The notes beneath the pieces are model-generated. The model was not told the origin of the DNA. It did not search any database and saw only the letters and a program-made list of their open reading frames with translations. Positions 11,134 through 20,604 of a stretch of DNA of 64,000 nucleotides are shown piece by piece (within the stretch, counting starts at the first letter, position 1; each line of letters begins with the position of its first letter). The stretch is from Acidobacteriota bacterium. GTDB taxonomy: Bacteria; Acidobacteriota; UBA6911; RPQK01; JAJDTT01. Position numbers and translations under genes: made by a program. The stretch lies in the NCBI GenBank assembly GCA_965209055.1, contig OZ242374.1, forward strand, positions 2,720,001 to 2,784,000, given 5' to 3'.

Positions 11134-11547
11134 TTATCTGAGCACTTCAAACGCGAACGTGCGGCCGCGACCGTAACGGTAAATTGCGAAATCGCTGTCG
11201 AAGGTGATCACACGGGAGATGCCGAGTCGCTCCATGAGCGCGAAGGAGGTGCGGTCGACCACGGAAAAGTCCTGGTCCGGAAACCGTTCTCCGATCGCCC
11301 ATGCGGCTTCAAGGTCAGCGCTGCTGGTCAGCTCGACCTTTGCCACTCCGCTTCTCAGGCCATCCCAGAAGGTTTCCGCCGCATTGGTGGAAATGAAATG
11401 GTGGATGAGGCGCCAGGTTTCAACCAGAACGTGGTCACTCGTGACGAGCGGTTCTTCCGTCGACAGCAGTCGCTTCGCACGGCCATTGTATAGATCGCTC
11501 CGATCGGCGGCCGCATACCAGGCTGAGCTGTCCACAAAGATACTCAT
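11134..11547 (-). CDS. vapC: VapC/PIN toxin
   Basis: 'IFVDSSAW', 'VLVET', 'FSVVDRTSFALM', 'TFDSDF'. Confidence 0.9.
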   Translation of the reverse strand: MSIFVDSSAWYAAADRSDLYNGRAKRLLSTEEPLVTSDHVLVETWRLIHHFISTNAAETFWDGLRSGVAKVELTSSADLEAAWAIGERFPDQDFSVVDRTSFALMERLGISRVITFDSDFAIYRYGRGRTFAFEVLR

Positions 11548-11804
11548 GACGAGTCAGCCCCTCGGCGTTTGCGCGCGGCAATCGCTGCCGCGATCATACG
11601 GGACTTTTCTGATGCGATGTCCGTCCGCCCGGAGGAGCCGAGATCGAAGACTTTGGATCGATCGGTATTCCTGGGGGGCTGGGACAAGTCCCGGTCCACC
11701 AACCGGCGTATGTATTCCGCAAGTGAGATGCCCAGATCGGCTGCCCTTACACGAACCATGGTGTGAACCTCGGAACTAAGAGAAATCTGCGTTCGAACCA
11801 TCAT
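11544..11804 (-). CDS. vapB: CopG/RHH antitoxin
   Basis: 'MVRTQISL', 'GISLAEYIRRLVD'; overlaps the vapC start. Confidence 0.85.
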   Translation of the reverse strand: MMVRTQISLSSEVHTMVRVRAADLGISLAEYIRRLVDRDLSQPPRNTDRSKVFDLGSSGRTDIASEKSRMIAAAIAARKRRGADSS

Positions 11805-11842: not shown

Positions 11843-11940
11843 TCCGGGCTTTGCCGTCTGGGAAAAGCCCGAATTCCAATGGTCTGACATCGGCATCCCG
11901 CTTGTCTTGTCGGGTTGTGCACATACACTACAAACGAAAT

Positions 11941-12330
11941 ATGCAAGGAAAACGCGACCCGGATCCCAAAATGAACTTCCACCCCGGGCTGAGCTTCAGC
12001 CGGGACGAGTATTTGCGCCGGTACCGGCTGGTGATGGACGGAATCCGGAAGGCGGGCGTCGACGCCCTGCTGGTTCGGGGACCCGAGAACATCACCTACC
12101 TCACCGGCTACGAAACCCCCGGCTACTACGGTTACCACTGCCTGATCCTGGTTCCGGGAGAGTCTCCGGTCCTGGTCGGCCGGAGGTTGGAGGTCGGGAC
12201 CAACGTCCCCGAGTTCTCCTGGTTGACCGAGGTCGCTCCGGTGGAGGACGACGAGGTGCCGGTGGAGGTCACCATCCGGACTCTTTCCCGGATGGGCCTG
12301 GCGCGGAAGCGTCTGGGGATCGAATCGGAA
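11941..12330 (+). pseudogene. M24 (Xaa-Pro peptidase/creatinase/ectoine hydrolase-like) gene, 5' half, interrupted
   Basis: Creatinase_N-like 'FSRDEYLRR', 'PENITYLTGY'; homology stops at the element's left inverted repeat. Confidence 0.9.
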
Positions 12331-12388
12331 GGGGATTATATACTGAATTTGATAGCCCTTGACCCTGCCTCAGCGCTGAGATAGGGTG

Positions 12389-12481
12389 GAGAAAACGTGG
12401 CCCGCAACCGTCGCCTGTTCCTACGGGGAAACGCTCTATCCAGCGCAGGAGTTAACGTACATCGAGGCGCCACGTTTTCTC
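12389..12481 (-). ncRNA. putative structured RNA, family A copy 1
   Basis: 12-bp closing stem GAGAAAACGTGG/CCACGTTTTCTC; homologous to 19302-19394 with compensatory changes. Confidence 0.55.
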
Positions 12482-12530
12482 GCTTTGTCCCCTCCTATTT
12501 GACCGCAAGGGCCAAAATCCGATAGGGTGG

Positions 12531-12621
12531 GAAGGACGGGACAGGCTGCAACACGATTGACGACCCTGCCCCTTCCGTATTGGGGAGGCGAGATCGTACT
12601 CGAAACCTGTGCCCGTCCTTC
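12531..12621 (-). ncRNA. putative structured RNA (long imperfect hairpin)
   Basis: GAAGGACGGG/CCCGTCCTTC and ACAGG/CCTGT stems; inner mismatches are G-U pairs on the minus strand. Confidence 0.45.
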
Positions 12622-12625
12622 AAGC

Positions 12626-12716
12626 GACGGGGCGTGACATTCGAAACCCTGTCTGCCGACGTATCCAGCTCGTCGGCCCTATCCAGGGCAGAGTCGATAA
12701 ACACCGTAGCCCCGTC
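12626..12716 (-). ncRNA. putative structured RNA with two UGGAUA-containing loops
   Basis: GACGGGGC/GCCCCGTC closing stem; minus-strand hairpins GCCC-UGGAUA-GGGC and CCGACG-AGCUGGAUA-CGUCGG. Confidence 0.45.
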
Positions 12717-12727
12717 CCCTCAGGAAT

Positions 12728-12796
12728 GGGGAGCACAAACACCAAGGCTCACACTAACGCAATTAGGCTTGGAGCATCAGTCATTTAAGGCTCCCC
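12728..12796. ncRNA. putative structured RNA, family B copy 1
   Basis: GGGGAGC/GCTCCCC, CCAAG/CTTGG and CTAA/TTAG nested stems; near-identical copy at 14526-14595. Confidence 0.5.
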
Positions 12797-12958
12797 GTCC
12801 CTTCCCCGTGAGAACCTGAGCACGACCGAACCAGACCCCACACCTCGCGGGAACACTGGCGAGGACGACAATGACAACGACGAATCAGATTCTCACCACA
12901 GTTCTATAATACGCCCGCCACCTCAAACTTGTCACCCTTCCTCGCTATGCTACCGGAC

Positions 12959-13055
12959 GAAGGGGTCGGGGTGCCTCATGGTGAGGCTGCAGTATTACAC
13001 TCGAAGTCAATCTTGAGGGATAGGATTTCGTGACTTGATGGCCTCGACCCCCTTC
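12959..13055 (+). ncRNA. putative structured RNA or leader
   Basis: GAAGGGGTCGGGG/CCTCGACCCCCTTC closing stem, inner AAGTCA/TGACTT; lies downstream of TATAAT at 12905. Confidence 0.35.
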
Positions 13056-13064
13056 TGACTCGTC

Positions 13065-13268
13065 ATGCAAAAGGTCTACGACGAATCGGTCGGTTCGATG
13101 AGTGGGGAGAGATGCGACGTGCCGGGCCGTTATGAGTCGTGCTGTGCTCACCGGGAAGTCAAGTTGATTCGTCGGGGAGAGTTGTTTCCGATCTGTCATC
13201 GTTGTCGTCGGTCGCTGTTCTGGCGTCTCATTCAGAGGATCGACGATGGTCAGCGCAGCGAGAGTTAA
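13065..13268 (+). CDS. small Cys-rich zinc-ribbon (YjzC-like) protein
   Basis: 'SGERCDVPGRYESCC....RRGELFPICHRC....WRLI'; start may be ATG 13098. Confidence 0.55.
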   Translation: MQKVYDESVGSMSGERCDVPGRYESCCAHREVKLIRRGELFPICHRCRRSLFWRLIQRIDDGQRSES

Positions 13269-13296
13269 AATTGAATTTACTAAGGAGAAGTTAAAC

Positions 13297-13506
13297 ATGA
13301 AGGAAAATCCTGTTCGTCAGTATATTATTGTTCATGACTATGACATTAAGACTCAAGTTATAGCGGATGATCTGACTTATATTACCGATGATAATGATAT
13401 GATGACAGTAACACTCAAATTGAAAGGTGAAACGGTAGGGCATTTTACTAATGTTAAGAATTGGGTCCGGCAAGACCTGACGACCAATGTAGAAGACGAT
13501 ACTTAG
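13297..13506 (+). CDS. small hypothetical protein (AT-rich)
   Basis: ATG after TAAGGAG; 69 codons. Confidence 0.55.
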   Translation: MKENPVRQYIIVHDYDIKTQVIADDLTYITDDNDMMTVTLKLKGETVGHFTNVKNWVRQDLTTNVEDDT

Positions 13507-13548
13507 TACTTGCCTTATCGTCCCTTGCTCAAATAGAATAAACGGCAA

Positions 13549-14109
13549 ATGATGAGCGAGGAATTTCACGAAGAGGATTTCCCTTCCATTGACGATGCTT
13601 ACAAGCTCGCTATGGAGTTCTACGCTTTCGCAATTCAACGGGCTGATGCACTAGACGCGAGAATTCAGTCTGTCATGTCCTTTTCTAGTGCAGTTACGTT
13701 TGCGCTTCCCTTAGCAATCCACAACCTCAGTTTGGACATAAATTCCAACTGGACCCTCGTCTTGGCCGCCTTGATTCTCATAGAGTTAGGTGTCTACTTG
13801 GCGGGCCGTTTCTTTGTGGGTTGGGGGAAATTGGAGGTACTGAGTCCTCTGAAGATTTACAATCAGCATCTACGAAAGGCCCCGGCCGAGTTCAAGAAGG
13901 ACATGATCTACTACGCCGGGCAGTCCTGGGACGAGAACAACCGAAAGATACTGACGCCACGCTGGCGACTAACAGTTACTCTTTCTTTGGTCTTGGCGAC
14001 GAAGGTACTGTTGTTCTTCGCGTGGGTGTTCTATCACTTCTCGTCTCCTCTGTCGGCCGGGGAGCCTGCGGAGGTGGCGGTGGTGGGGCTGAGTCTCCTT
14101 TTTTCATAG
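13549..14109 (+). CDS. hypothetical membrane protein (about 3 TM)
   Basis: N-terminal helix 'RADALDARI' followed by hydrophobic segments. Confidence 0.65.
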   Translation: MMSEEFHEEDFPSIDDAYKLAMEFYAFAIQRADALDARIQSVMSFSSAVTFALPLAIHNLSLDINSNWTLVLAALILIELGVYLAGRFFVGWGKLEVLSPLKIYNQHLRKAPAEFKKDMIYYAGQSWDENNRKILTPRWRLTVTLSLVLATKVLLFFAWVFYHFSSPLSAGEPAEVAVVGLSLLFS

Positions 14110-14161
14110 CGACAAACCTAGCAGACTTCTGAGTAGTACGCAAGACAGTCTCTTACTTCCC

Positions 14162-14416
14162 TCATTGCTTCTTGACCACCTCAAATCCGAGTCGTTTGAT
14201 CAGAGGAACAGCCTCGTCTGGCGAGAAGTCGCGAGGATGTAGGCTCACTCTAGGGGCGCGTTTTATGGCCTCCGTCACGACATATTTCAACGGGTAGAGC
14301 CTGCGGCCTGATTTGATCCACCAAGCCTTGGCACCACGTATACGGGGCCAGGGCTCGTCTATCGCCTTCAACGCCTTTTCTACGTGATTCCTCTCGATCC
14401 CATCGAATTTGGCCAT
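14162..14416 (-). CDS. small protein resembling the ScoMcrA-like N-terminal DNA-binding domain
   Basis: 'IERNHVEKALKAID', 'GRRLYPLKYVV', 'DFS..EA...KRLGFEV'; GAGGAG RBS. Confidence 0.55.
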   Translation of the reverse strand: MAKFDGIERNHVEKALKAIDEPWPRIRGAKAWWIKSGRRLYPLKYVVTEAIKRAPRVSLHPRDFSPDEAVPLIKRLGFEVVKKQ

Positions 14417-14525
14417 CTTCAGCTCCTCTCAATTGGTAAGGCTACGCAGACCTCCGGCTAAGTCCATTTTCGAATGCTCAAAAATTAGTCGGAGTTTCTG
14501 CTAAGGTGGGGGGTGAGAAGAAGAC

Positions 14526-14595
14526 GGGGAGTACAAAAACCAAGGCTCACACTAACCACAATTAGACATGGAGCATCAGTCATTTAAGGCTCCCC
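14526..14595. ncRNA. putative structured RNA, family B copy 2
   Basis: Matches 12728-12796, including GGAGCATCAGTCATTTAAGGCTCCCCG. Confidence 0.5.
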
Positions 14596-14736
14596 GCCTC
14601 TCAGAGAGCGCGCCCGATAACCATGCCAGCCCACAATCCAAAGCAAAGCTGGTGAGTGCTATTGAGGGGCGACGCCTCATCAACAACTTCATACTACGCC
14701 ACAGCACAACGAAAAAGCGACCCTTCGGCCATGGCC

Positions 14737-16029
14737 TCAAGGCTCTCGACAGGGACAATCTGACGGCGATACGACTTCAGATTCCCCGTTGTTGACTTCA
14801 ACCCAAGTACTCTCGTTCCCAACAAGATTCGGTTGGGCTGGGATCCTGCCGGTAAATCCTTCCTTACGTCTGTACCAGACATGATGGCGCCACCAGAGCG
14901 GAGTGTAAGAGACGTGCAATTCAACGCCCCGTTCCATGAGCGCATGGACGACAGACGCCGATTTTGCTTTGATAGTCTCCCCCGTCCAATCGCTACGGGA
15001 ATCCCGTTTGTAGTCGAGCTCGACGACCGCGACACAACCGAGTGGGCCTCCAGACTCGACATAATGCGTCTGGTGACTCATATAGTAGTCACTCTCTGAA
15101 TGAGAACCCACGGACATATCAGCAATATGCATGCCGTCTTCGACCCATGCGGGATTGCCATTCAGTTTTTGCTGAATGGCCATTTCCCAACCCTTCTCAG
15201 GTGTCGCTGGCGTGCCCCCGAAATAACAACCGTCGGTGCCATTGATCCCAGCTTTCAGACAAATGTCACGCCAATCGGCAGGAGGGCAGTTGCCTTCGCT
15301 AAGACTGGGCGGTCCGTCCCAGAATCGGGGCTCGGACGCCGCATGCCAACGGGCGTTCCCATGCTCAGGGGCAAACGCCTCGACGACTGCGACCTTATAT
15401 CCCCAGTGATGCTCGTCATCGTGCAGTTTGACCACCCATCGTCTGAACTGAGAGACGACCCGTTGTTGTCCATCTAATGGTGGAAGACTGCCCCCACGAA
15501 CGCCGAACAATGTCTCGACCTGGCCTATGAACCCGTAGAAGATTCTGGCGCAGTTCTCTGTCTTCACTACGTCATGGGGGGCAGCGATTGGCGCTTTCGT
15601 AGTCGTAACGTCTTCACACTCGACCTTTGTACGCCAGCCTCCCATGCCAGCTTGTACAACGTGTCTGCCAGGGTCCCAGGTCGTAACGAGTGGATCGGGG
15701 AATGGGATGTTTACAACCGCGAAAAAATGACCGTCGTCAGTACGCATGACACGCCACTGCTCGATCCCTGCGCAACGTTCCGTGCCATTCCTCAGAGTGC
15801 CAATCATGCCCTCCTCGAAGTAGTCGGGCAGTGCGAGAAAGCCCTCGCATTGGTACACGCCATGAGGCAACGGGCCGTAAGCCGTCTCGAAGGCAAACCC
15901 GTTTCCAATAAGACGATTGCCTTGCTGTTCCGTAGTCGTGGCGAGGGAAACGAACGATATGCCGGACGACTCACCCCCTATTCCCATCAATATCAGGAGC
16001 GAAATAAACGACACTCTCACGAATTTCAT
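14737..16029 (-). CDS. secreted Cys-rich hypothetical protein
   Basis: Signal-like 'MKFVRVSFISLLILMG'; GGAGG RBS; start overlaps the upstream stop. Confidence 0.7.
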   Translation of the reverse strand: MKFVRVSFISLLILMGIGGESSGISFVSLATTTEQQGNRLIGNGFAFETAYGPLPHGVYQCEGFLALPDYFEEGMIGTLRNGTERCAGIEQWRVMRTDDGHFFAVVNIPFPDPLVTTWDPGRHVVQAGMGGWRTKVECEDVTTTKAPIAAPHDVVKTENCARIFYGFIGQVETLFGVRGGSLPPLDGQQRVVSQFRRWVVKLHDDEHHWGYKVAVVEAFAPEHGNARWHAASEPRFWDGPPSLSEGNCPPADWRDICLKAGINGTDGCYFGGTPATPEKGWEMAIQQKLNGNPAWVEDGMHIADMSVGSHSESDYYMSHQTHYVESGGPLGCVAVVELDYKRDSRSDWTGETIKAKSASVVHALMERGVELHVSYTPLWWRHHVWYRRKEGFTGRIPAQPNLVGNESTWVEVNNGESEVVSPSDCPCREP

Positions 16030-16505
16030 TCCCTCCTCCACTCCAACTCGTCAACCTGAGTCTCTAGGTTATTGATTTGCGATTTCAAACGGCGCATTCG
16101 CGCTTGTAATATCGAATTCTGAGCGCGGAGAAACTGCGCCGACTCGAACCCCGTCAGGAACTCCCGGAATTGATAATGACGCACGTCTTTGCCTGAGAAG
16201 TACGCTTTGACTGTGCGTAGGGTGTTTGCAGAGACGGCAAGGGCCGAGCCGTAGGCAATTCCGATTTCCTTGTCGTCAGAATCGAGAATCGTGAAGACAA
16301 CGGCGACAAGCGGCTGATTCCGTCCCCAGCGCCCGTTCTTTATCGTTCCTGTGATCGTGATTCCCGATTCATGGCGTTCGGGTTGATGGGCAATCAACTC
16401 CAAGTGATTTGGGCCACGGAATCCGAGGAAGACAAGCAAAAAGACAACGCCAAATCCAACTACGCTCGCCGAGATGAAAAGTGAGTGTAGTTTCAGCTTC
16501 TTCAT
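16026..16505 (-). CDS. membrane-anchored FxLYD-like domain protein with C-terminal coiled coil
   Basis: N-terminal TM; 'ITGTIKN', 'VFTILDSDDKEIG'. Confidence 0.6.
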   Translation of the reverse strand: MKKLKLHSLFISASVVGFGVVFLLVFLGFRGPNHLELIAHQPERHESGITITGTIKNGRWGRNQPLVAVVFTILDSDDKEIGIAYGSALAVSANTLRTVKAYFSGKDVRHYQFREFLTGFESAQFLRAQNSILQARMRRLKSQINNLETQVDELEWRRE

Positions 16506-16555
16506 AGCGTCTCTTGAATAGGATTCGATTTTCTGGCAGGCTCAAAGAGTTGGGG

Positions 16556-16668
16556 GTGGGAAGAGGCCAGCCCCCCGAATTGTAACGGGACTGGCCGTAC
16601 CAGAACCCCCTTTCGTCCGGGCATCCGTAACGCTCGACGAATGGGGGCAGTCATTACCTGCTTCCCAC
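16556..16668 (-). ncRNA. putative multi-hairpin structured RNA
   Basis: GTGGGAAG/CTTCCCAC closing stem enclosing GGCCAG/CTGGCC and CCCCC/GGGGG hairpins; intergenic. Confidence 0.4.
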
Positions 16669-16704
16669 AATTGAAATTACGATACGCCACACACCTTGAT
16701 TTTG

Positions 16705-17718
16705 TCATCCTGTCGTCAACGCCAGTAACTCTCTGAGCAATTCGACCAACCGACGAAGGCGCTTGGCGTCCTCTTGATCCTGAGTGTCGGGAATCTGTGC
16801 GATGCCATCCTCTGACGGTCTGTGCGTCTCGAACCAGCCCTGAAACTCGCGAAATAGAGAGACCGTCGTCTCGCCACAAGACGTGACTGCCGAGTCCCAC
16901 GCTGTTTGAAACGTATTTTCCTGCGTGAGAAGTACGTCCTTGTAGAAATTCTCGCCACACCGCTCTTCAACGAAGACCAGGAACAGCCAAGGCTGCCGAT
17001 ACACGCCCCCGAATGAGACCATGGGCGTCGTGCCGACTCCCCAGCAACAGGCGTAGGACTGGGGACGCTCCCCGTCGATTTTGTCCAAGAGCAATTCGAA
17101 CATCTCGTCCCTGTCCGGGCTGTCTCTCCAGCCGTACAGTTCAGCGCCTCCATCTAAGAACCAACTTGGAAATTGGTACGATTGAATGGTCTGCCCCCAT
17201 CCCAGCCGATCCACCATGATTCTGTCCCTCAATGTGTACTGAAGATGGTGGAAGGTTTCGTGCACCACGTTTTTGGCAACGACCGAGTCTGTGTCTTGGG
17301 CCTGTCCAAGTGCTGTCGGCAGGGTGTCGTTAGTCTCAATATGCTCGGTGATCGAACCTGTCGCCGGAAGTCCGATCCACGGGGCGTTGCCGCTGTAATG
17401 AATGGCCTCTCCGATGAGCGCGGTCCACACCGCGCCTGTTTCGTGTCGAAACGTCTCCCCAACGGGTACCAGGTAGATATCGAGTTGCGGCAAAATAATG
17501 GCGTACTCGTCTTCGGCCACTTCGAAGGTGTAGTCGGCCCATTCATGGACGAGTTCGAGGTCGGCCTCATACCGGTCCCGATAGAAGATCGTGTAGGCGT
17601 GCTCGTCGCTTGACGACTCAGACCATCCATCATCGAGTGACGACTGTGAAAATCCTGGAGAGGCGACGAGAATCGAGAGAAAAAGGATGCAGGTCAGGCG
17701 CTGTGCGAATTGAGTCAT
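16705..17718 (-). CDS. secreted zinc metallopeptidase-like protein (HExxH)
   Basis: Signal peptide; 'VVHETFHHLQ' plus 'PSWFLDGGAE' (gluzincin-like, D at the usual E position). Confidence 0.7.
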   Translation of the reverse strand: MTQFAQRLTCILFLSILVASPGFSQSSLDDGWSESSSDEHAYTIFYRDRYEADLELVHEWADYTFEVAEDEYAIILPQLDIYLVPVGETFRHETGAVWTALIGEAIHYSGNAPWIGLPATGSITEHIETNDTLPTALGQAQDTDSVVAKNVVHETFHHLQYTLRDRIMVDRLGWGQTIQSYQFPSWFLDGGAELYGWRDSPDRDEMFELLLDKIDGERPQSYACCWGVGTTPMVSFGGVYRQPWLFLVFVEERCGENFYKDVLLTQENTFQTAWDSAVTSCGETTVSLFREFQGWFETHRPSEDGIAQIPDTQDQEDAKRLRRLVELLRELLALTTG

Positions 17719-17731
17719 GACAAATCCCCTC

Positions 17732-17760
17732 ATTGTGGTCGAGACGCGGGGGCTTGTCAA
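17732..17760 (-). promoter_or_regulatory. sigma70 promoter
   Basis: TTGACA-N17-CACAAT just upstream of the RBS and ATG 17718. Confidence 0.65.
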
Positions 17761-17768
17761 CGTGGAAT

Positions 17769-17800
17769 TTCTAATACGAAGTAATTCCTTCGTATTAGAA
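17769..17800. terminator. perfect 13-bp hairpin downstream of the tRNA cluster (terminator or operator)
   Basis: TTCTAATACGAAG-N6-CTTCGTATTAGAA; no clear U-tract. Confidence 0.4.
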
Positions 17801-17868
17801 TTCTCATGTGTTAGAATCTCCAACGATGCGCTCGGCTGATAGACTGTCGTACGTGATTGAAGAGAAGG

Positions 17869-17942
17869 CGGCCCCGGCCAGATTCGAACTGACGACCTCC
17901 GTGTTCGGCAAACCGGCGCTCTTTCCACTGAGCTACGGGGAC
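17869..17942 (-). tRNA. irregular tRNA, Arg-like body, apparent anticodon GCC (possibly a pseudogene)
   Basis: GTCCCCG TA GCTC AGTGGAAA GAGC G CCGGT TTGCCGA ACACGG AGGTC GTCAG TTCGAAT CTGGC CGGGGCC G. U2.C71 mismatch and one extra base in the anticodon arm. Confidence 0.7.
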
Positions 17943-17983
17943 CACCCCTATTCTATCACCGGTTGGGCGTAGAGTAAGAAAGG

Positions 17984-18069
17984 TGCCCGAGGCGGGATTC
18001 GAACCCGCAAACTCTTGGGGAGTCGCCGGTTTTCTAAACCGGAGCGTATACCAGTTCCGCCACTCGGGC
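17984..18069 (-). tRNA. type II tRNA, Leu-type body, anticodon AGA (Ser)
   Basis: GCCCGAG TG GCGG AACTGGTATA CGC T CCGGT TTAGAAA ACCGG [long variable arm] GCGGG TTCGAAT CCCGC CTCGGGC A. Acceptor, anticodon and T stems are perfect; CCA is not encoded. Confidence 0.9.
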
Positions 18070-18089
18070 ACTCGACAAGGAGTTTATGA

Positions 18090-18173
18090 TGCCCGAGGCG
18101 GGGATCGAACCCGCACGGCCATTCGGCCGGCAGATTTCTAGTCTGCTGTGTCTGCCGGTTTCACCACTCGGGC
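18090..18173 (-). tRNA. type II tRNA, Leu-type body, anticodon AGA (Ser)
   Basis: GCCCGAG TG GTG AAACCGGCAGA CAC A GCAGA CTAGAAA TCTGC CGGCCGAATGGCCGT GCGGG TTCGATC CCCGC CTCGGGC A. Stems are perfect; CCA is not encoded. Confidence 0.9.
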
Positions 18174-18186
18174 ATCTACTCCTGGG

Positions 18187-18195
18187 AGTCTAGCA
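18187..18195 (-). promoter_or_regulatory. extended -10 promoter for the tRNA cluster
   Basis: TGCTAGACT (TGn-TAGACT) ending 13 nt upstream of the first tRNA. Confidence 0.45.
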
Positions 18196-18283
18196 CATGC
18201 CGAAACCCGTTGCTCTTCCACCACTTCCGCCTGGAACGACGATGGAGGATATCGCCCGATCGTTGTTTCGGAAATCTACGGGA

Positions 18284-19279
18284 TCAGGACCTCGCGCCAG
18301 CGTCGAGCCCGTTATCGGCCGTCAAGTCTCGATACATGAGGCGACGTCCGACAACGGCCATAACGAGGAGTCTCATCTGATCGAGGGTGTCGAGATTACG
18401 GACGTTGTGCCGACTTGAGAACTCCCTCACGTACCGTTCCAAGTGCTTCGGACTCATCTTGTGGAAGGTCCCCGTGTAGGACCGTTTCAGCATGGACCAG
18501 AAGGACTCGATCCCGTTGGTGTGAGCCTGCCCCCGGACATACTCCCCGACCGAATGTCTGACTGCCTCATGGTCGGGCAGCTTGAGGTAGATTCGAGAGT
18601 CGTCTGTGTAAGACTTCGCCCCGGGCTTCACGTGCTCCATAATGAACCGGGACAAGGTTTCACTCGTCACGTTCGAGACTCTCGTTGCCCGGACCTGATT
18701 TGAGGCACGATCCTTGATGCCAACGACCGCCGTCTTGCCGGTCGCTCCCCGTCCGTGCAGTTTGTCACGTTGCTTCTTGTGCATGTTGCGGCGCTTCCCT
18801 CCCAGGTAGACCTCGTCGATTTCGACTGGTCCTGAGAAGGGATCGGGATCACCAGAAAACGCCTCACGGAGCCGATGGGCGAGATGCCACGCCGATTTTT
18901 GAGTGATTCCCAGGTCTCGGTGCAGCTTCATTGACGAGACGCCCTTGAGGCTCGTCATCCACAGATACATGGCGTATGCCCATTTACGGAGGGGTAGTCG
19001 GGAACTCTCCAGAACGGACCCGACTCGGACGGAGAAGTACTTTTTGCAGCCACGACAGCGGTAGGGTTGAGGCTTGCCCGACTTGACCACGTAGGTGTCG
19101 CAGTCTCCGCATCGGGGGCAGGGACGATCCTCGGATTCCTGGCCGGGCACAGCATCGGGCCAGCGGACCGTCTCGAACCACTCGACGGCGGCTTGCTCGT
19201 CGGGGAACAGTTCGGAGAGTTGTAGCAGTGTGATTCCCTTACGATGCGATTTTCCAGGGGCTTTCTTCTTTGTACTCAT
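18284..19279 (-). CDS. IS1595-family transposase
   Basis: Zn ribbon 'CPRCG...YRCRGC', HTH 'KGVSSMKLHRDLGITQKSAW', catalytic 'VEIDEVYLGG', 'YTDD', 'HTNGIESFWS'; intact. Confidence 0.97.
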   Translation of the reverse strand: MSTKKKAPGKSHRKGITLLQLSELFPDEQAAVEWFETVRWPDAVPGQESEDRPCPRCGDCDTYVVKSGKPQPYRCRGCKKYFSVRVGSVLESSRLPLRKWAYAMYLWMTSLKGVSSMKLHRDLGITQKSAWHLAHRLREAFSGDPDPFSGPVEIDEVYLGGKRRNMHKKQRDKLHGRGATGKTAVVGIKDRASNQVRATRVSNVTSETLSRFIMEHVKPGAKSYTDDSRIYLKLPDHEAVRHSVGEYVRGQAHTNGIESFWSMLKRSYTGTFHKMSPKHLERYVREFSSRHNVRNLDTLDQMRLLVMAVVGRRLMYRDLTADNGLDAGARS

Positions 19280-19301
19280 GACAGGAATTTGCTAAGGTGA
19301 G

Positions 19302-19394
19302 GAGAAGACGTGGGCCGCAACCGTCGCCCGTCTGGTTTCTTTCCAGCTGAGCTACAGACGGGAGTTAACGTAGATCGAGGCACCACGTCCTCTC
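19302..19394 (-). ncRNA. putative structured RNA, family A copy 2
   Basis: Shares CCGCAACCGTCGCC and GGAGTTAACGTA-ATCGAGGC with 12389-12481; different apical hairpin. Confidence 0.55.
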
Positions 19395-19432
19395 GATTCA
19401 TTGTACTCCAAAATGCGCTTGTGGTATAAGGA

Positions 19433-19640
19433 GAAACGGGAGGGCGTTCAATCCACCCTGCCCAGCCGCCCCGAGAGGGACGGCCCGGCGTGAGGGACAG
19501 GGTGAAACTTGGCGGCTCGCCGTTCAAGCCCTGGTCCTTGCTACGTGAACGTGCTCTACCACGGGGCCAGGGATCAAACTTGGCGCCCAGCCCTGTTCTG
19601 ACCAGACTGTCGAGGACTCTCGACTCGGGCCGGGACTGAA
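19433..19640 (-). ncRNA. stack of further imperfect hairpins upstream of the transposase
   Basis: AACGG/CCGTT with CACCCTG/CAGGGTG (about 19433-19525), CCCTGG/CCAGGG (about 19529-19572) and a GTCGAG/CTCGAC hairpin (about 19609-19624). Confidence 0.35.
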
Positions 19641-19730
19641 ATGCGAACTCCCTGTATTTTCCCGGAAGTCTTGCTGGAACGTCAACCCCTCACGATGCGA
19701 CTTTCCAGGGGCTATCTTCTTTTTCTTCAT
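19524..19730 (-). pseudogene. short ORF beginning with a duplicate of the transposase N-terminus
   Basis: MKKKKIAPGKSHREGLTF versus transposase MSTKKKAPGKSHRKGITL; similarity is lost after about 18 codons. Confidence 0.65.
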
Positions 19731-19748
19731 GACTTTCCTCACACCGGG

Positions 19749-19777
19749 AGTATACTAGGTTGTGAGGAAATTGTCAA
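19749..19777 (-). promoter_or_regulatory. inward sigma70 promoter overlapping the right TIR
   Basis: TTGACA-N17-TATACT, then GAGGAA and ATG 19730. Confidence 0.8.
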
Positions 19778-19803
19778 ATTCAGTATATAATCCCCAATCG
19801 GAA

Positions 19804-20604
19804 AGCTGGTTCCTGACGGTCAACGAGCACCAGGCCCTGGCCGGCGCGCTGCCTCATGCCACGCTGGTCGACTGCTCCAGCGTCATCGAGGAGGCGCGGA
19901 TGATCAAGTCGGCCGAGGAGGTGGATGTGATTCGCCAGGCGGTGGCCATCGCCGACCGGGCGTGTCTGGCTGGGATCCGGGCGACTCGACCGGGGACCAC
20001 CGAGGACCGGATCGCGGCGGCCGTCTACAAGGAATGGTGCGAGGCGGGAGCCGAGTACACCGGACTGCCCAACTTCATTGTTTCGGGGCCCCGGTCAGGC
20101 GCGTGCCATGCCACCTGGCGGGGCCGCCGGCTGGAGGACGACGACCACTGCTGCTTTGAAATCGCGGCCTCCAAGCATCGTTATTGCGGGGCCGTTTTCC
20201 GCATGGCCACGGTGGGCCGGGTGAATCCCCGGCTGCGCCGGCTTTCTGACGCGCAGAACCGGGCCATCCAGGAAGTGATCGACGCCATCCGGCCGGGGGC
20301 CGTTTCGGAAGAGGTGGACCAGGTCGGCCGGGACGTCATCGCCAAGGCGGGGTTCGGCAAGTGGCACGTGAGCCGGCTGGGCTATTCCATCGGCATCAAC
20401 TATCCCCCCGACTGGGGTGAGGGCCAGATCATCAGCATCCGGCAGGGGGAGAAGCGGCGCCTCCACGAGAACATGACCTTCCACCTGGTGGCCGGCGTCC
20501 TCATTCCCGGCGAGTTCGGCAGCGGGTCCAGCGCCTCGGTGCGCGTCACCGCCACCGGCTGCGAGGTGTTGACCTCGCTTCCACTCCAGCTTTACGAGAA
20601 CTGA
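19804..20604 (+). pseudogene. M24 peptidase-family gene, 3' half
   Basis: 'RMIKSAEE', 'HATW', 'GYSIGINYPPDWGE', 'ENMTFH'. Joins the 5' half in frame (..LGIESE|SWFLTV..) to give 396 aa. Confidence 0.9.

Follow-up and report, generated by a model that had tools for sequence, protein, structure and literature searches.

Leucine-type tRNAs with the serine anticodon AGA as cargo of an IS1595-family transposon in an Acidobacteriota bacterium

Natural gene-encoded mistranslation is known in bacteria from very few systems, namely tRNAProX of Streptomyces and the allo-tRNAs. The present work concerns a window of 64,000 nucleotides (the whole stretch of DNA that was analysed) from an Acidobacteriota bacterium (GenBank assembly GCA_965209055.1, contig OZ242374.1, positions 2,720,001 to 2,784,000), in which two minus-strand tRNA genes combine a leucine-type body with the serine anticodon AGA. 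These genes, copy 1 (17984..18069) and copy 2 (18090..18173), are referred to below as the AGA pair and are carried by an IS1595-family transposon of 7,465 bp (12331..19795). Translational Ser-to-Leu miscoding at UCU, as proposed in an earlier note on this DNA, is to our judgement the probable role of the AGA pair, with a probability of roughly 0.55 given what can be read from the sequences.

The tRNAProX genes (tRNAProA, tRNAProT and tRNAProN) of Streptomyces and Kitasatospora are reported to mistranslate in reporter assays (PMC10404621, PMC11415595). Like them, the AGA pair consists of natural bacterial tRNAs with the body of one identity, the anticodon of another and A34; in tRNAProX the body is that of proline and the anticodons are AGC, AGU and AUU. 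As described in these sources, tRNAProX has A33, A15-A48 and G21 and usually lies beside a special ProRS isoform (ProRSx), whereas the AGA pair has a standard leucine body with U33, and no synthetase domain was found in the open reading frames (ORFs) of its element (Pfam, NCBIfam, translations). Unlike tRNAProX, the AGA tRNAs reside on an IS1595 transposon, and their type is found in many phyla. The second system, known from Acidobacteria and other soil bacteria, comprises the allo-tRNAs together with irregular tRNA polycistrons; missense suppression and toxicity in Escherichia coli are reported for it (PMC5389517). These are likewise natural tRNAs with an anticodon-blind identity (theirs being Ser or Ala) and with anticodons of other amino acids, including Leu. 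According to the same source they lie near toxin-antitoxin systems and a transposon-related ORF, whereas for the tRNAs of the window the carriage in a defined transposon is demonstrated. Furthermore, the allo-tRNAs have 8/4 or 9/3 acceptor/T-stem arrangements and place serine at leucine codons, while the AGA pair has the 7/5 arrangement and is predicted to place leucine at a serine codon.

The nearest functional match to the AGA pair is the engineered tRNA-Leu(YGA) of the "swapped genetic code" E. coli, in which a leucine body is combined with a serine anticodon of the UCN box, CGA or UGA (bioRxiv 10.64898/2026.09.17.752456). The engineered tRNA is reported to receive leucine and to insert it at the serine codon. 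Partial mistranslation is reported to be tolerated in this strain, and the swap blocks phage and gene transfer. That system is described as man-made, in a recoded host without the target codons; in contrast, the AGA pair is natural, would read UCU through A34 and resides in a host that still uses UCU. A leucine/serine mismatch between identity and anticodon, leaving a sense codon ambiguous or reassigned, is also described for tRNA-Ser(CAG) of the CUG-clade yeasts (PMC11415595), which differs in being eukaryotic, chromosomal, vertically inherited and of the opposite direction (serine at a leucine codon). With regard to the vehicle, the element resembles described insertion sequences of the IS1595 family in its DDE_Tnp_IS1595 transposase with zinc ribbon, its terminal inverted repeats and its 8-bp target duplication; ISApl4, a member of that family, makes 8-bp direct repeats (PMC12561309). 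The AGA pair is set apart from tRNAProX, the allo-tRNAs and the swapped-code tRNA-Leu by its standard cloverleaf, its leucine identity, the predicted reading of UCU through A34, the lack of a partner synthetase and the IS1595 vehicle. In the open-access papers searched (main texts), no report was found of a natural bacterial leucine-bodied AGA tRNA or of tRNA genes as IS1595 passengers.

Structure and identity of the AGA pair

ARAGORN calls three tRNA genes in the whole window, all on the minus strand: 17867-17942 (GCC), 17982-18069 (AGA) and 18088-18174 (AGA); the strand of the two AGA genes is the sole descriptive item that the earlier note had left out. The Rfam tRNA model gives 55.4 bits for copy 1 (17984-18069) and 51.3 bits for copy 2 (18090-18173), the latter being the first after the transposase gene. 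Both AGA tRNAs belong to class II and form a standard 7/5 cloverleaf, with a 7-bp acceptor stem (GCCCGAG/CTCGGGC, including C2:G71 and C3:G70), the discriminator A73 and a 5-bp T-stem. The D-arms contain 3-bp D-stems and leucine-type D-loops, AACTGGTAT and AACCGGCAG, and A15 and T48 (the A15-U48 pair) are present in both genes. The anticodon stems, of 5 bp each (CCGGT/ACCGG and GCAGA/TCTGC), close the 7-nt loops UUAGAAA and CUAGAAA, which hold U33, A34-G35-A36, A37 and A38. The long variable arms are paired and measure 15-17 nt, and the T-arm is GCGGG/CCCGC, its stem being identical to that of the host tRNA-Leu(GAG). The acceptor stem with A73, the perfect 5-bp anticodon stems with 7-nt loops (TTAGAAA, CTAGAAA), A15-U48, the Leu-style D-loop and the long variable arm had all been pointed out before, and each is seen in the sequence and in the two cloverleaves. 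The further statement that the D, anticodon and variable arms differ while AGA is common to both also holds: the copies share 70% identity, the changes in their D, anticodon and variable stems are compensatory, and 0 stem mismatches are present.

The rarity of such tRNAs is the only point in favor of a sequencing or assembly error in ordinary leucine tRNA genes. Logan contigs from four runs match positions 12301-18472 with 0 differences, AGA included, and it follows from these independent assemblies that the anticodon is not an assembly slip; a leucine anticodon in the sequencing data, which had been named beforehand as an outcome that would overturn the proposal, is not what the contigs read. 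The four runs, all available as contigs, represent a single sample, from which the assembly itself was probably made. Furthermore, the same anticodon occurs on two divergent copies, and 15 other assemblies hold the same type of tRNA. The probability of an error is therefore negligible, and it is excluded as far as contigs from a single sample permit.

In E. coli, the leucyl- and seryl-tRNA synthetases (LeuRS and SerRS) tell their substrates apart by marks such as A73, C2:G71 and A15-U48; A73 is a LeuRS determinant, and the LeuRS of bacteria is blind to the anticodon. For comparison with the AGA pair, tRNA genes were collected from the window genome and 39 relatives of the same order, giving 40 distinct ones for Leu and 47 for Ser. 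The loci of one unpublished genome (G016, the source of locus L002) are excluded from this set and from the covariance models built on it; the counts for the 40 relatives given below include that genome. The tRNA-Leu genes of the host order have G1, C2, A14, A15, T48 and A73 in 40/40 cases, and the tRNA-Ser genes have G1, G2, A3, G4, G15 and G73 in 47/47 cases, the G2:C71 pair also being invariant. The AGA pair follows the leucine pattern at every one of these diagnostic positions, and the serine marks G2:C71, A3, G4, G15 and G73 are all absent from both genes. This agrees with the earlier expectation for G2-C71 and G73, which were named as the typical marks of tRNA-Ser. In addition, A14, A15, G18, G19 and T48 are invariant across the host leucine set and the wider family of AGA tRNAs described below. 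The serine-type features of the pair are the anticodon and the long variable arm. In place of a leucine anticodon (NAG or YAA) both genes carry AGA, and since the anticodon is no LeuRS determinant, the pair fails as a cognate leucine decoder and not as a LeuRS substrate.

The same assignment is obtained from the covariance models, with 74.1 bits (Leu) vs 57.4 bits (Ser) for copy 1 and 80.7 vs 50.6 bits for copy 2, in accordance with the isotype result that had been predicted. The leucine model wins for both genes although the anticodon loop itself favors the serine model. The D-arm motif of copy 1 was also searched in viral contigs without regard to the anticodon. Among the matches listed, 80 loci were read and contained 68 tRNAs with the motif, all of which (68/68) have leucine anticodons: TAA in 37, TAG in 19, CAA in 8 and GAG in 4. 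The AGA pattern itself gave three viral loci, and an AGA tRNA is present only in one of them, a 505-kb contig (L034), there with G73. In the tRNA array of that contig (L034:938-2111), the serine tRNAs (AGA, GCT, CGA and TGA; all G73) share the D-arm of its leucine tRNAs (A73), and a Leu(AAG) is also found in the array.

Taken as genuine serine tRNAs, the AGA pair would be charged by SerRS through the long variable arm and would provide AT-richer mobile DNA with a Watson-Crick reader of UCU. The serine anticodon, the long variable arm and the loop YUAGAAA, which fits the serine loop type, are consistent with such a role, as is the higher frequency of TCT in the transposon genes than in the host. 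Moreover, there is a precedent for an A34 tRNA as a useful cognate decoder, since tRNA-Asp(AUC) of Streptomyces is reported to improve GAU decoding (PMC9262613). This explanation is nevertheless very improbable: the marks of 47/47 host-order tRNA-Ser genes (G2:C71, A3, G4, G15, G73) are all missing, the serine model falls 17 and 30 bits below the leucine model, and in 5/5 other carrier genomes examined the canonical serine tRNAs are quite unlike the AGA tRNA. Collectively, in their sequences the two genes are structurally normal long-arm tRNAs with the marks of LeuRS substrates and without those of SerRS substrates.

The IS1595-family transposon and the recurrence of its tRNAs

The element that carries the AGA pair (12331..19795) is delimited by its terminal repeats, its target duplication, its junctions with respect to an intact ortholog and its composition, the G+C content being 46-59% vs about 65% in the flanks. 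The left terminal inverted repeat, GGGGATTATATACTGAATTTGA (12331..12352, plus strand), is 22 nt long and 100% complementary to the right one (19774..19795, minus strand). The 8-bp target-site duplication AATCGGAA is found at 12323..12330 and 19796..19803, as seen in the alignment with the intact gene: positions 1505-1512 of that gene in locus L030 occur on both sides of the insert. The transposase gene (18284..19279, minus strand) encodes 331 aa with an N-terminal zinc ribbon and matches DDE_Tnp_IS1595 (PF12762, 3.9e-39), Zn_ribbon_IS1595 (PF12760, 1.2e-06) and NCBIfam NF033547 (190 bits). The tRNAs begin 110 nt past this gene on the same strand, inside the bounds set by repeats and duplication. 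They are thus the cargo of a delimited IS1595-family transposon, which gives substance to the earlier suggestion that they are mobile. Some subgroups of the IS1595 family are said by Siguier et al. (2009) to carry passenger genes.

The transposon interrupts an M24 peptidase/creatinase-like gene, of which the 5' part (11851..12330, plus strand; Pfam Creatinase_N) and the 3' part (19796..20604, plus strand; Pfam Peptidase_M24, 1.1e-34) lie on either side. The gene is intact in 7/8 genomes of the same genus, as a frame of 399-406 aa with 94-97% identity. In contigs of 3/4 runs the empty-site joint 12322->19796 is present, with 8 ambiguous bases; since the empty site occurs in the same sample, the insertion is polymorphic in that population and recent. 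The 12-kb region around the tRNA cluster has only short matches elsewhere in its own genome. No close copy of the cluster was found in 40 relatives, where ordinary tRNA-Leu and tRNA-Arg genes are the best matches, and a plasmid search returned six records with partial matches of 74-80% only.

Regarding the wider occurrence of this tRNA type, one genome per GTDB species was scanned for a leucine-type D-arm followed at the right distance by YTAGAAA. Eighteen loci in GTDB species representatives fit the pattern, of which 15 receive an ARAGORN call as AGA tRNA; the other three (L012, L018 and L021) have neither an ARAGORN call nor a model match and were taken as chance or truncated matches. The 15 carriers belong to the Alphaproteobacteria, Gammaproteobacteria, Acidobacteriota, Actinomycetota, Chloroflexota, Planctomycetota and two candidate-phyla-radiation lineages. 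The leucine model scores above the serine model in 15/15, and A73 is found in 16/17 AGA tRNAs when the window pair is counted with them. The acceptor stems of these leucine bodies are very different from one another. In an alignment of 18 sequences (the 17 AGA tRNAs and an AGG variant), 98.6% of the stem cells pair, both sides have changed in 16/20 pairs, and 0/500 shuffles equal this result; the intactness of the rest of each tRNA is not a product of the way the scan was built. Canonical tRNA-Ser genes of quite different build are present in all five other carrier genomes examined, with the full canonical set including GGA in three and with GGA not among the loci fetched in the other two; the window genome has GCT, TGA, CGA and GGA. 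Since the carriers keep their canonical tRNA-Ser genes, the AGA tRNA is an addition to the normal set. A search of 400 other genomes sampled across the phylum for a leucine D-arm followed by any A34 loop gave 0 cases, and random drift to A34 is consequently not common. Two odd pairings of body and anticodon were noted beside AGA tRNAs of this family, a 69-nt Arg-like body called AAG (L017:2677-2745) and an 80-nt body without G3:U70 called AGC (L020:595-674).

In 4/18 pattern loci (L011, L014, L015 and L025), the distance between the AGA tRNA and a transposase homolog is no more than about 2 kb, whereas an IS1595 transposase is found near 0/60 canonical tRNA loci of the relatives (176 kb) and 0/120 viral tRNA-Leu loci (1.08 Mb). 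The association with IS1595 transposases that had been put forward for a check was thus recovered, at 4/18 loci vs 0/180 controls. A 1.56-kb module with 71% identity, made up of the transposase gene, the tRNA and a downstream ORF, is common to the loci from a Beijerinckiaceae genome (L011) and from Mesorhizobium loti (L015). Identity within it reaches 89.5% for the tRNA, compared with 67.5% for the transposase gene DNA and 63.5-71% for the flanks; the differences between the two tRNAs include compensatory pairs, and immediately before the tRNA a TTGACA-N17-TATCAA sequence is kept. The tRNA of L014 lies together with a DUF5343 gene and the transposase gene between the arms of a perfect 16-bp inverted repeat. 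Other neighbors in the family are an IS1-like transposase, a DDE_Tnp_1 transposase, Cas9, Cas1/Cas4 with a Gp49-like gene, RhuM and RadC. In the Planctomycetaceae locus, the leucine-bodied AGA tRNA (L027:3751-3839) lies 34 nt upstream of the Cas9 ORF on the same strand.

These findings bear on the possibility that the tRNAs are inert passengers, that is, captured leucine tRNA genes whose anticodons have drifted and which are silent or weakly expressed and decaying. The rarity of tRNA cargo (one leucine-bodied tRNA in 80 transposase-relative loci), the damaged appearance of the adjoining third tRNA, the internal duplications of the element, in which the 5' end of its transposase gene recurs in truncated form, and the fact that no RNA run is among the runs holding the stretch are all compatible with decay. 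We nevertheless regard it as unlikely. Copies with 70% identity have kept 0 stem mismatches, compensatory pairs and the same anticodon and discriminator; the tRNA of L011 and L015 is conserved at 89.5% vs 67.5% for the transposase gene; the same unusual anticodon occurs on leucine bodies with very different acceptor stems in many phyla; and none of the 400 sampled genomes of the phylum combines a leucine D-arm with an A34 loop.

Predicted decoding of UCU

In the mechanism that we propose for the AGA pair, we infer expression, leucylation and decoding from the properties of the genes, together with any benefit to the element or the host. The tRNAs would move with the element and would probably be transcribed with the transposase gene or from a weak promoter of their own. 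A sigma-70-like promoter, TTGACA-17-TATACT (19749..19777, minus strand), was predicted from 11/12 consensus matches; it overlaps the right terminal repeat and is directed inward, toward the tRNAs and the transposase gene. In the sequence 13 nt upstream of copy 2, where the scan had made no call, a possible extended -10 element can be read (TGcTAGACT; 18187..18195, minus strand), which may represent an own promoter of this gene. The host LeuRS would load the AGA pair with leucine; because this enzyme does not read the anticodon, leucylation is to be expected. The anticodon blindness is borne out by an engineered phage tRNA-Leu(CGA), which is reported to read TCG as leucine in E. coli (bioRxiv 10.64898/2026.09.17.752456). 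As for maturation, no CCA is encoded in the single Arg(ACG), Leu(TAG) and Phe(GAA) genes of the host, which must therefore possess a CCA-adding enzyme. After processing and CCA addition the AGA pair would be able to pair with the serine codon UCU, and its U33, A37 and A38, together with the T-stem like that of Leu(GAG), would favor translation competence.

The nucleotide A34 is most likely unmodified. It would pair with U in Watson-Crick fashion, and the AGA tRNAs would compete for UCU with the host tRNA-Ser(GGA), a wobble reader of this codon. Reading of UCC and UCA after deamination of A34, an option in the earlier note, does not fit the loops: these contain UAGA, whereas the editing sites of TadA are described as having a UACG core, or UAMG in Streptococcus pyogenes (PMC11472039). 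Deamination is therefore unlikely in the AGA pair. Non-ACG tRNAs with A34 are very rare in bacteria, with 132 among about 240,000 tRNA genes after filtering, and a change of E. coli serX to AGA is reported as tolerated (bioRxiv 10.64898/2026.05.15.725136). The expected outcome is a partial Ser-to-Leu substitution at a codon rarely used by the host, in whose long open frames UCU amounts to 2.9 per 1000 codons. Taking into account this rarity, the miscoding would be thinned out in host proteins and would weigh more on AT-richer genes.

Several observations weigh against miscoding by the AGA pair. The transposon genes themselves use TCT more than the host, with 3-6 TCT codons per gene, and would suffer too. 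A need of the element for UCU as leucine was considered and rejected, as the three TCT codons of the transposase are at no conserved leucine position; the corresponding columns in the alignment with six homologs read S/T/N/K/K/T/S, S/S/V/I/M/M/L and S/N/A/F/W/A/A, and three sites are a weak test. With respect to identity, the leucine model outscores the serine model also for the G73 tRNAs with serine anticodons in the viral contig L034 (505 kb). The isotype models mostly read the D-arm and alone are no proof of identity, and the leucine case therefore rests chiefly on A73, C2:G71 and A15-U48. The constancy of AGA across the 15 matches is partly by construction, since the scan required YTAGAAA. 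Among 80 metagenomic relatives of the transposase (41-59% identity, 598 kb), only L195 has a leucine-bodied tRNA, from which it follows that tRNA cargo is occasional and not a fixed part of the element. That tRNA (L195:5601-5686) has A73 and the loop GTAGGAA (AGG, for the proline codon CCU) and lies 300 nt upstream of the IS1595 transposase gene. On the side of expression, the promoter matches are matches to a consensus and not evidence of transcription, and the four runs holding the stretch, all from one sample, include no listed RNA run. The irregular third tRNA shows that not everything in the cluster need be a working decoder. Finally, the irregular tRNAs reported by Mukai et al. (PMC5389517) include some that are charged and do not decode, and because of this precedent a non-translational role has to be reckoned with.

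In such a role the tRNAs would be made, and perhaps charged, and would serve without decoding as a decoy of, or a substitute for, toxins that cut tRNA, as an amino-acid donor for a non-ribosomal reaction, as a processing signal for RNase P/Z by which the transposase transcript is shaped, or as a regulatory RNA. We consider this doubtful, although it has a basis in several features of the locus. The irregular tRNAs of PMC5389517 are described near toxin-antitoxin systems and transposon-related ORFs; the AGA pair directly follows the transposase gene on the same strand, with no strong own promoter called; the third tRNA and an Arg-like tRNA of the second IS1595 element of the genome have abnormal anticodon arms; and several family members occur in defense or toxin contexts (Cas9, Cas1/Cas4 with Gp49, RhuM, RadC). 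Against this, the loops of the AGA pair are fully standard (U33, A37, A38) and the T-stems Leu-like, features that neither a pure decoy nor a processing signal would require. Among the cargo ORFs, none was recognized as a tRNA-using enzyme or tRNA nuclease (Pfam, NCBIfam, PADLOC), and the ribosome could hardly be kept from using a standard tRNA once it is leucylated.

If miscoding by the AGA pair is accepted, IS1595-family transposons might tentatively be viewed as vehicles for anticodon-switched tRNAs that exploit anticodon-blind synthetases, forming a mobile codon-rewriting module by which a host-rare codon becomes ambiguous. This view builds on the AGA and AGG anticodons of leucine bodies and on a tRNA of the second element, whose body is Ser- or Tyr-like and whose anticodon is GAA. 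The proteins of incoming AT-richer phages and plasmids could then be damaged, in a natural counterpart of the swapped-code firewall; alternatively, a stress-inducible diversity of the proteome could result, and either effect would favor retention of the transposon. Leucine-for-serine miscoding would in that case be a natural phenomenon, not confined to engineered strains, which spreads across phyla on a simple transposon and is directed at a codon that is rare in the GC-rich host and commoner in foreign DNA. This would bear on the stability of the genetic code against mobile DNA, on the use of miscoding in conflicts between hosts and invaders, and on natural precedents for, or ways around, engineered swapped-code firewalls. 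The whole tRNA cluster covers about 300 bp, which makes the finding readily testable.

Other cargo and further odd tRNAs of the genome

The third tRNA of the cluster (17869..17942, minus strand; Rfam 47.8 bits) has an Arg-like body with A20 and G73 and the loop UUGCCGA, with the anticodon GCC. It is labelled tRNA-Gly by ARAGORN; in the alignment with host Arg and Gly tRNAs it goes with the tRNA-Arg genes and not with the host tRNA-Gly(GCC), its D-arm is of the Arg type, and its best matches in the relatives are tRNA-Arg genes. In addition, it has a U2.C71 mismatch, and its anticodon stem is bulged. It may be a working GCC reader with partial arginine identity or a relic, and its function is doubtful. 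Directly downstream of the tRNA cluster lies a 25-nt inverted repeat (17760..17809; 80% complementary), a possible terminator or operator.

Two further cargo ORFs were described from their translations. The first (16705..17730, minus strand) has a signal-peptide-like start and an HExxH motif and encodes a possible zinc peptidase. The second (14737..16041, minus strand) encodes 434 aa and has a 24%-identical paralog beside the second IS1595 element of the genome. Apart from the transposase, no cargo ORF matches a Pfam, NCBIfam or PADLOC family at the curated cut-off, and the Atlas gave no usable match for the 434-aa ORF and leads only (MA-clan peptidases) for the HExxH ORF. The transposon also contains direct repeats with 87-94% identity (12388-12485 vs 19301-19398, 12728-12802 vs 14526-14601 and 19236-19282 vs 19687-19733). 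These internal repeats, among which the 5' end of the transposase gene occurs a second time in truncated form, suggest a past rearrangement or a merger of two elements. Outside the transposon and directly left of the M24 gene, a PIN-domain (VapC-like) gene (11134-11804, minus strand) with a small overlapping upstream ORF is present.

The second IS1595 element of the genome (C1:1716001-1722000, L247) encodes a transposase 56% identical to that of the window. It carries a class-II tRNA with the anticodon GAA (Phe), A73 and an encoded CCA, which scores 65.5 bits on the serine model and 47.8 bits on the leucine model. Also present are an Arg-like tRNA whose anticodon loop has 6 nt, a weak tRNA match with a 36-nt insert and the paralog of the 434-aa ORF. 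A third IS1595 element, of 3.1 kb (C1:6041919-6045037, L384), holds two cargo ORFs and no tRNA, and the first 13 nt of its terminal repeats (GGGGATTATATAC) are common to the element of the window.

A third "Ser(aga)" called by ARAGORN at genome position 4203100 proved to be a false call on a tandem hairpin repeat. It belongs to a family of repetitive extragenic palindrome (REP)-like hairpins, GGCGG-N7-CCGCC, with 167 sites in the genome (e.g., C1:4203097-4203190). The loop found most frequently in them, TTGGAAA, is also that of the tRNA-Ser(GGA) anticodon arm; loops of TTAGAAA or CTAGAAA occur as variants and give rise to the false call. The likeness of these loops to tRNA-Ser(GGA) is probably a coincidence. 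Lastly, ARAGORN makes six tRNA-Leu(TAA) calls at genome positions 477237, 1381642, 1991443, 2104898, 2524782 and 3018716, all without an encoded CCA, in a genome with 63% G+C in which TTA amounts to 0.3 per 1000 codons and most canonical tRNA genes encode CCA.

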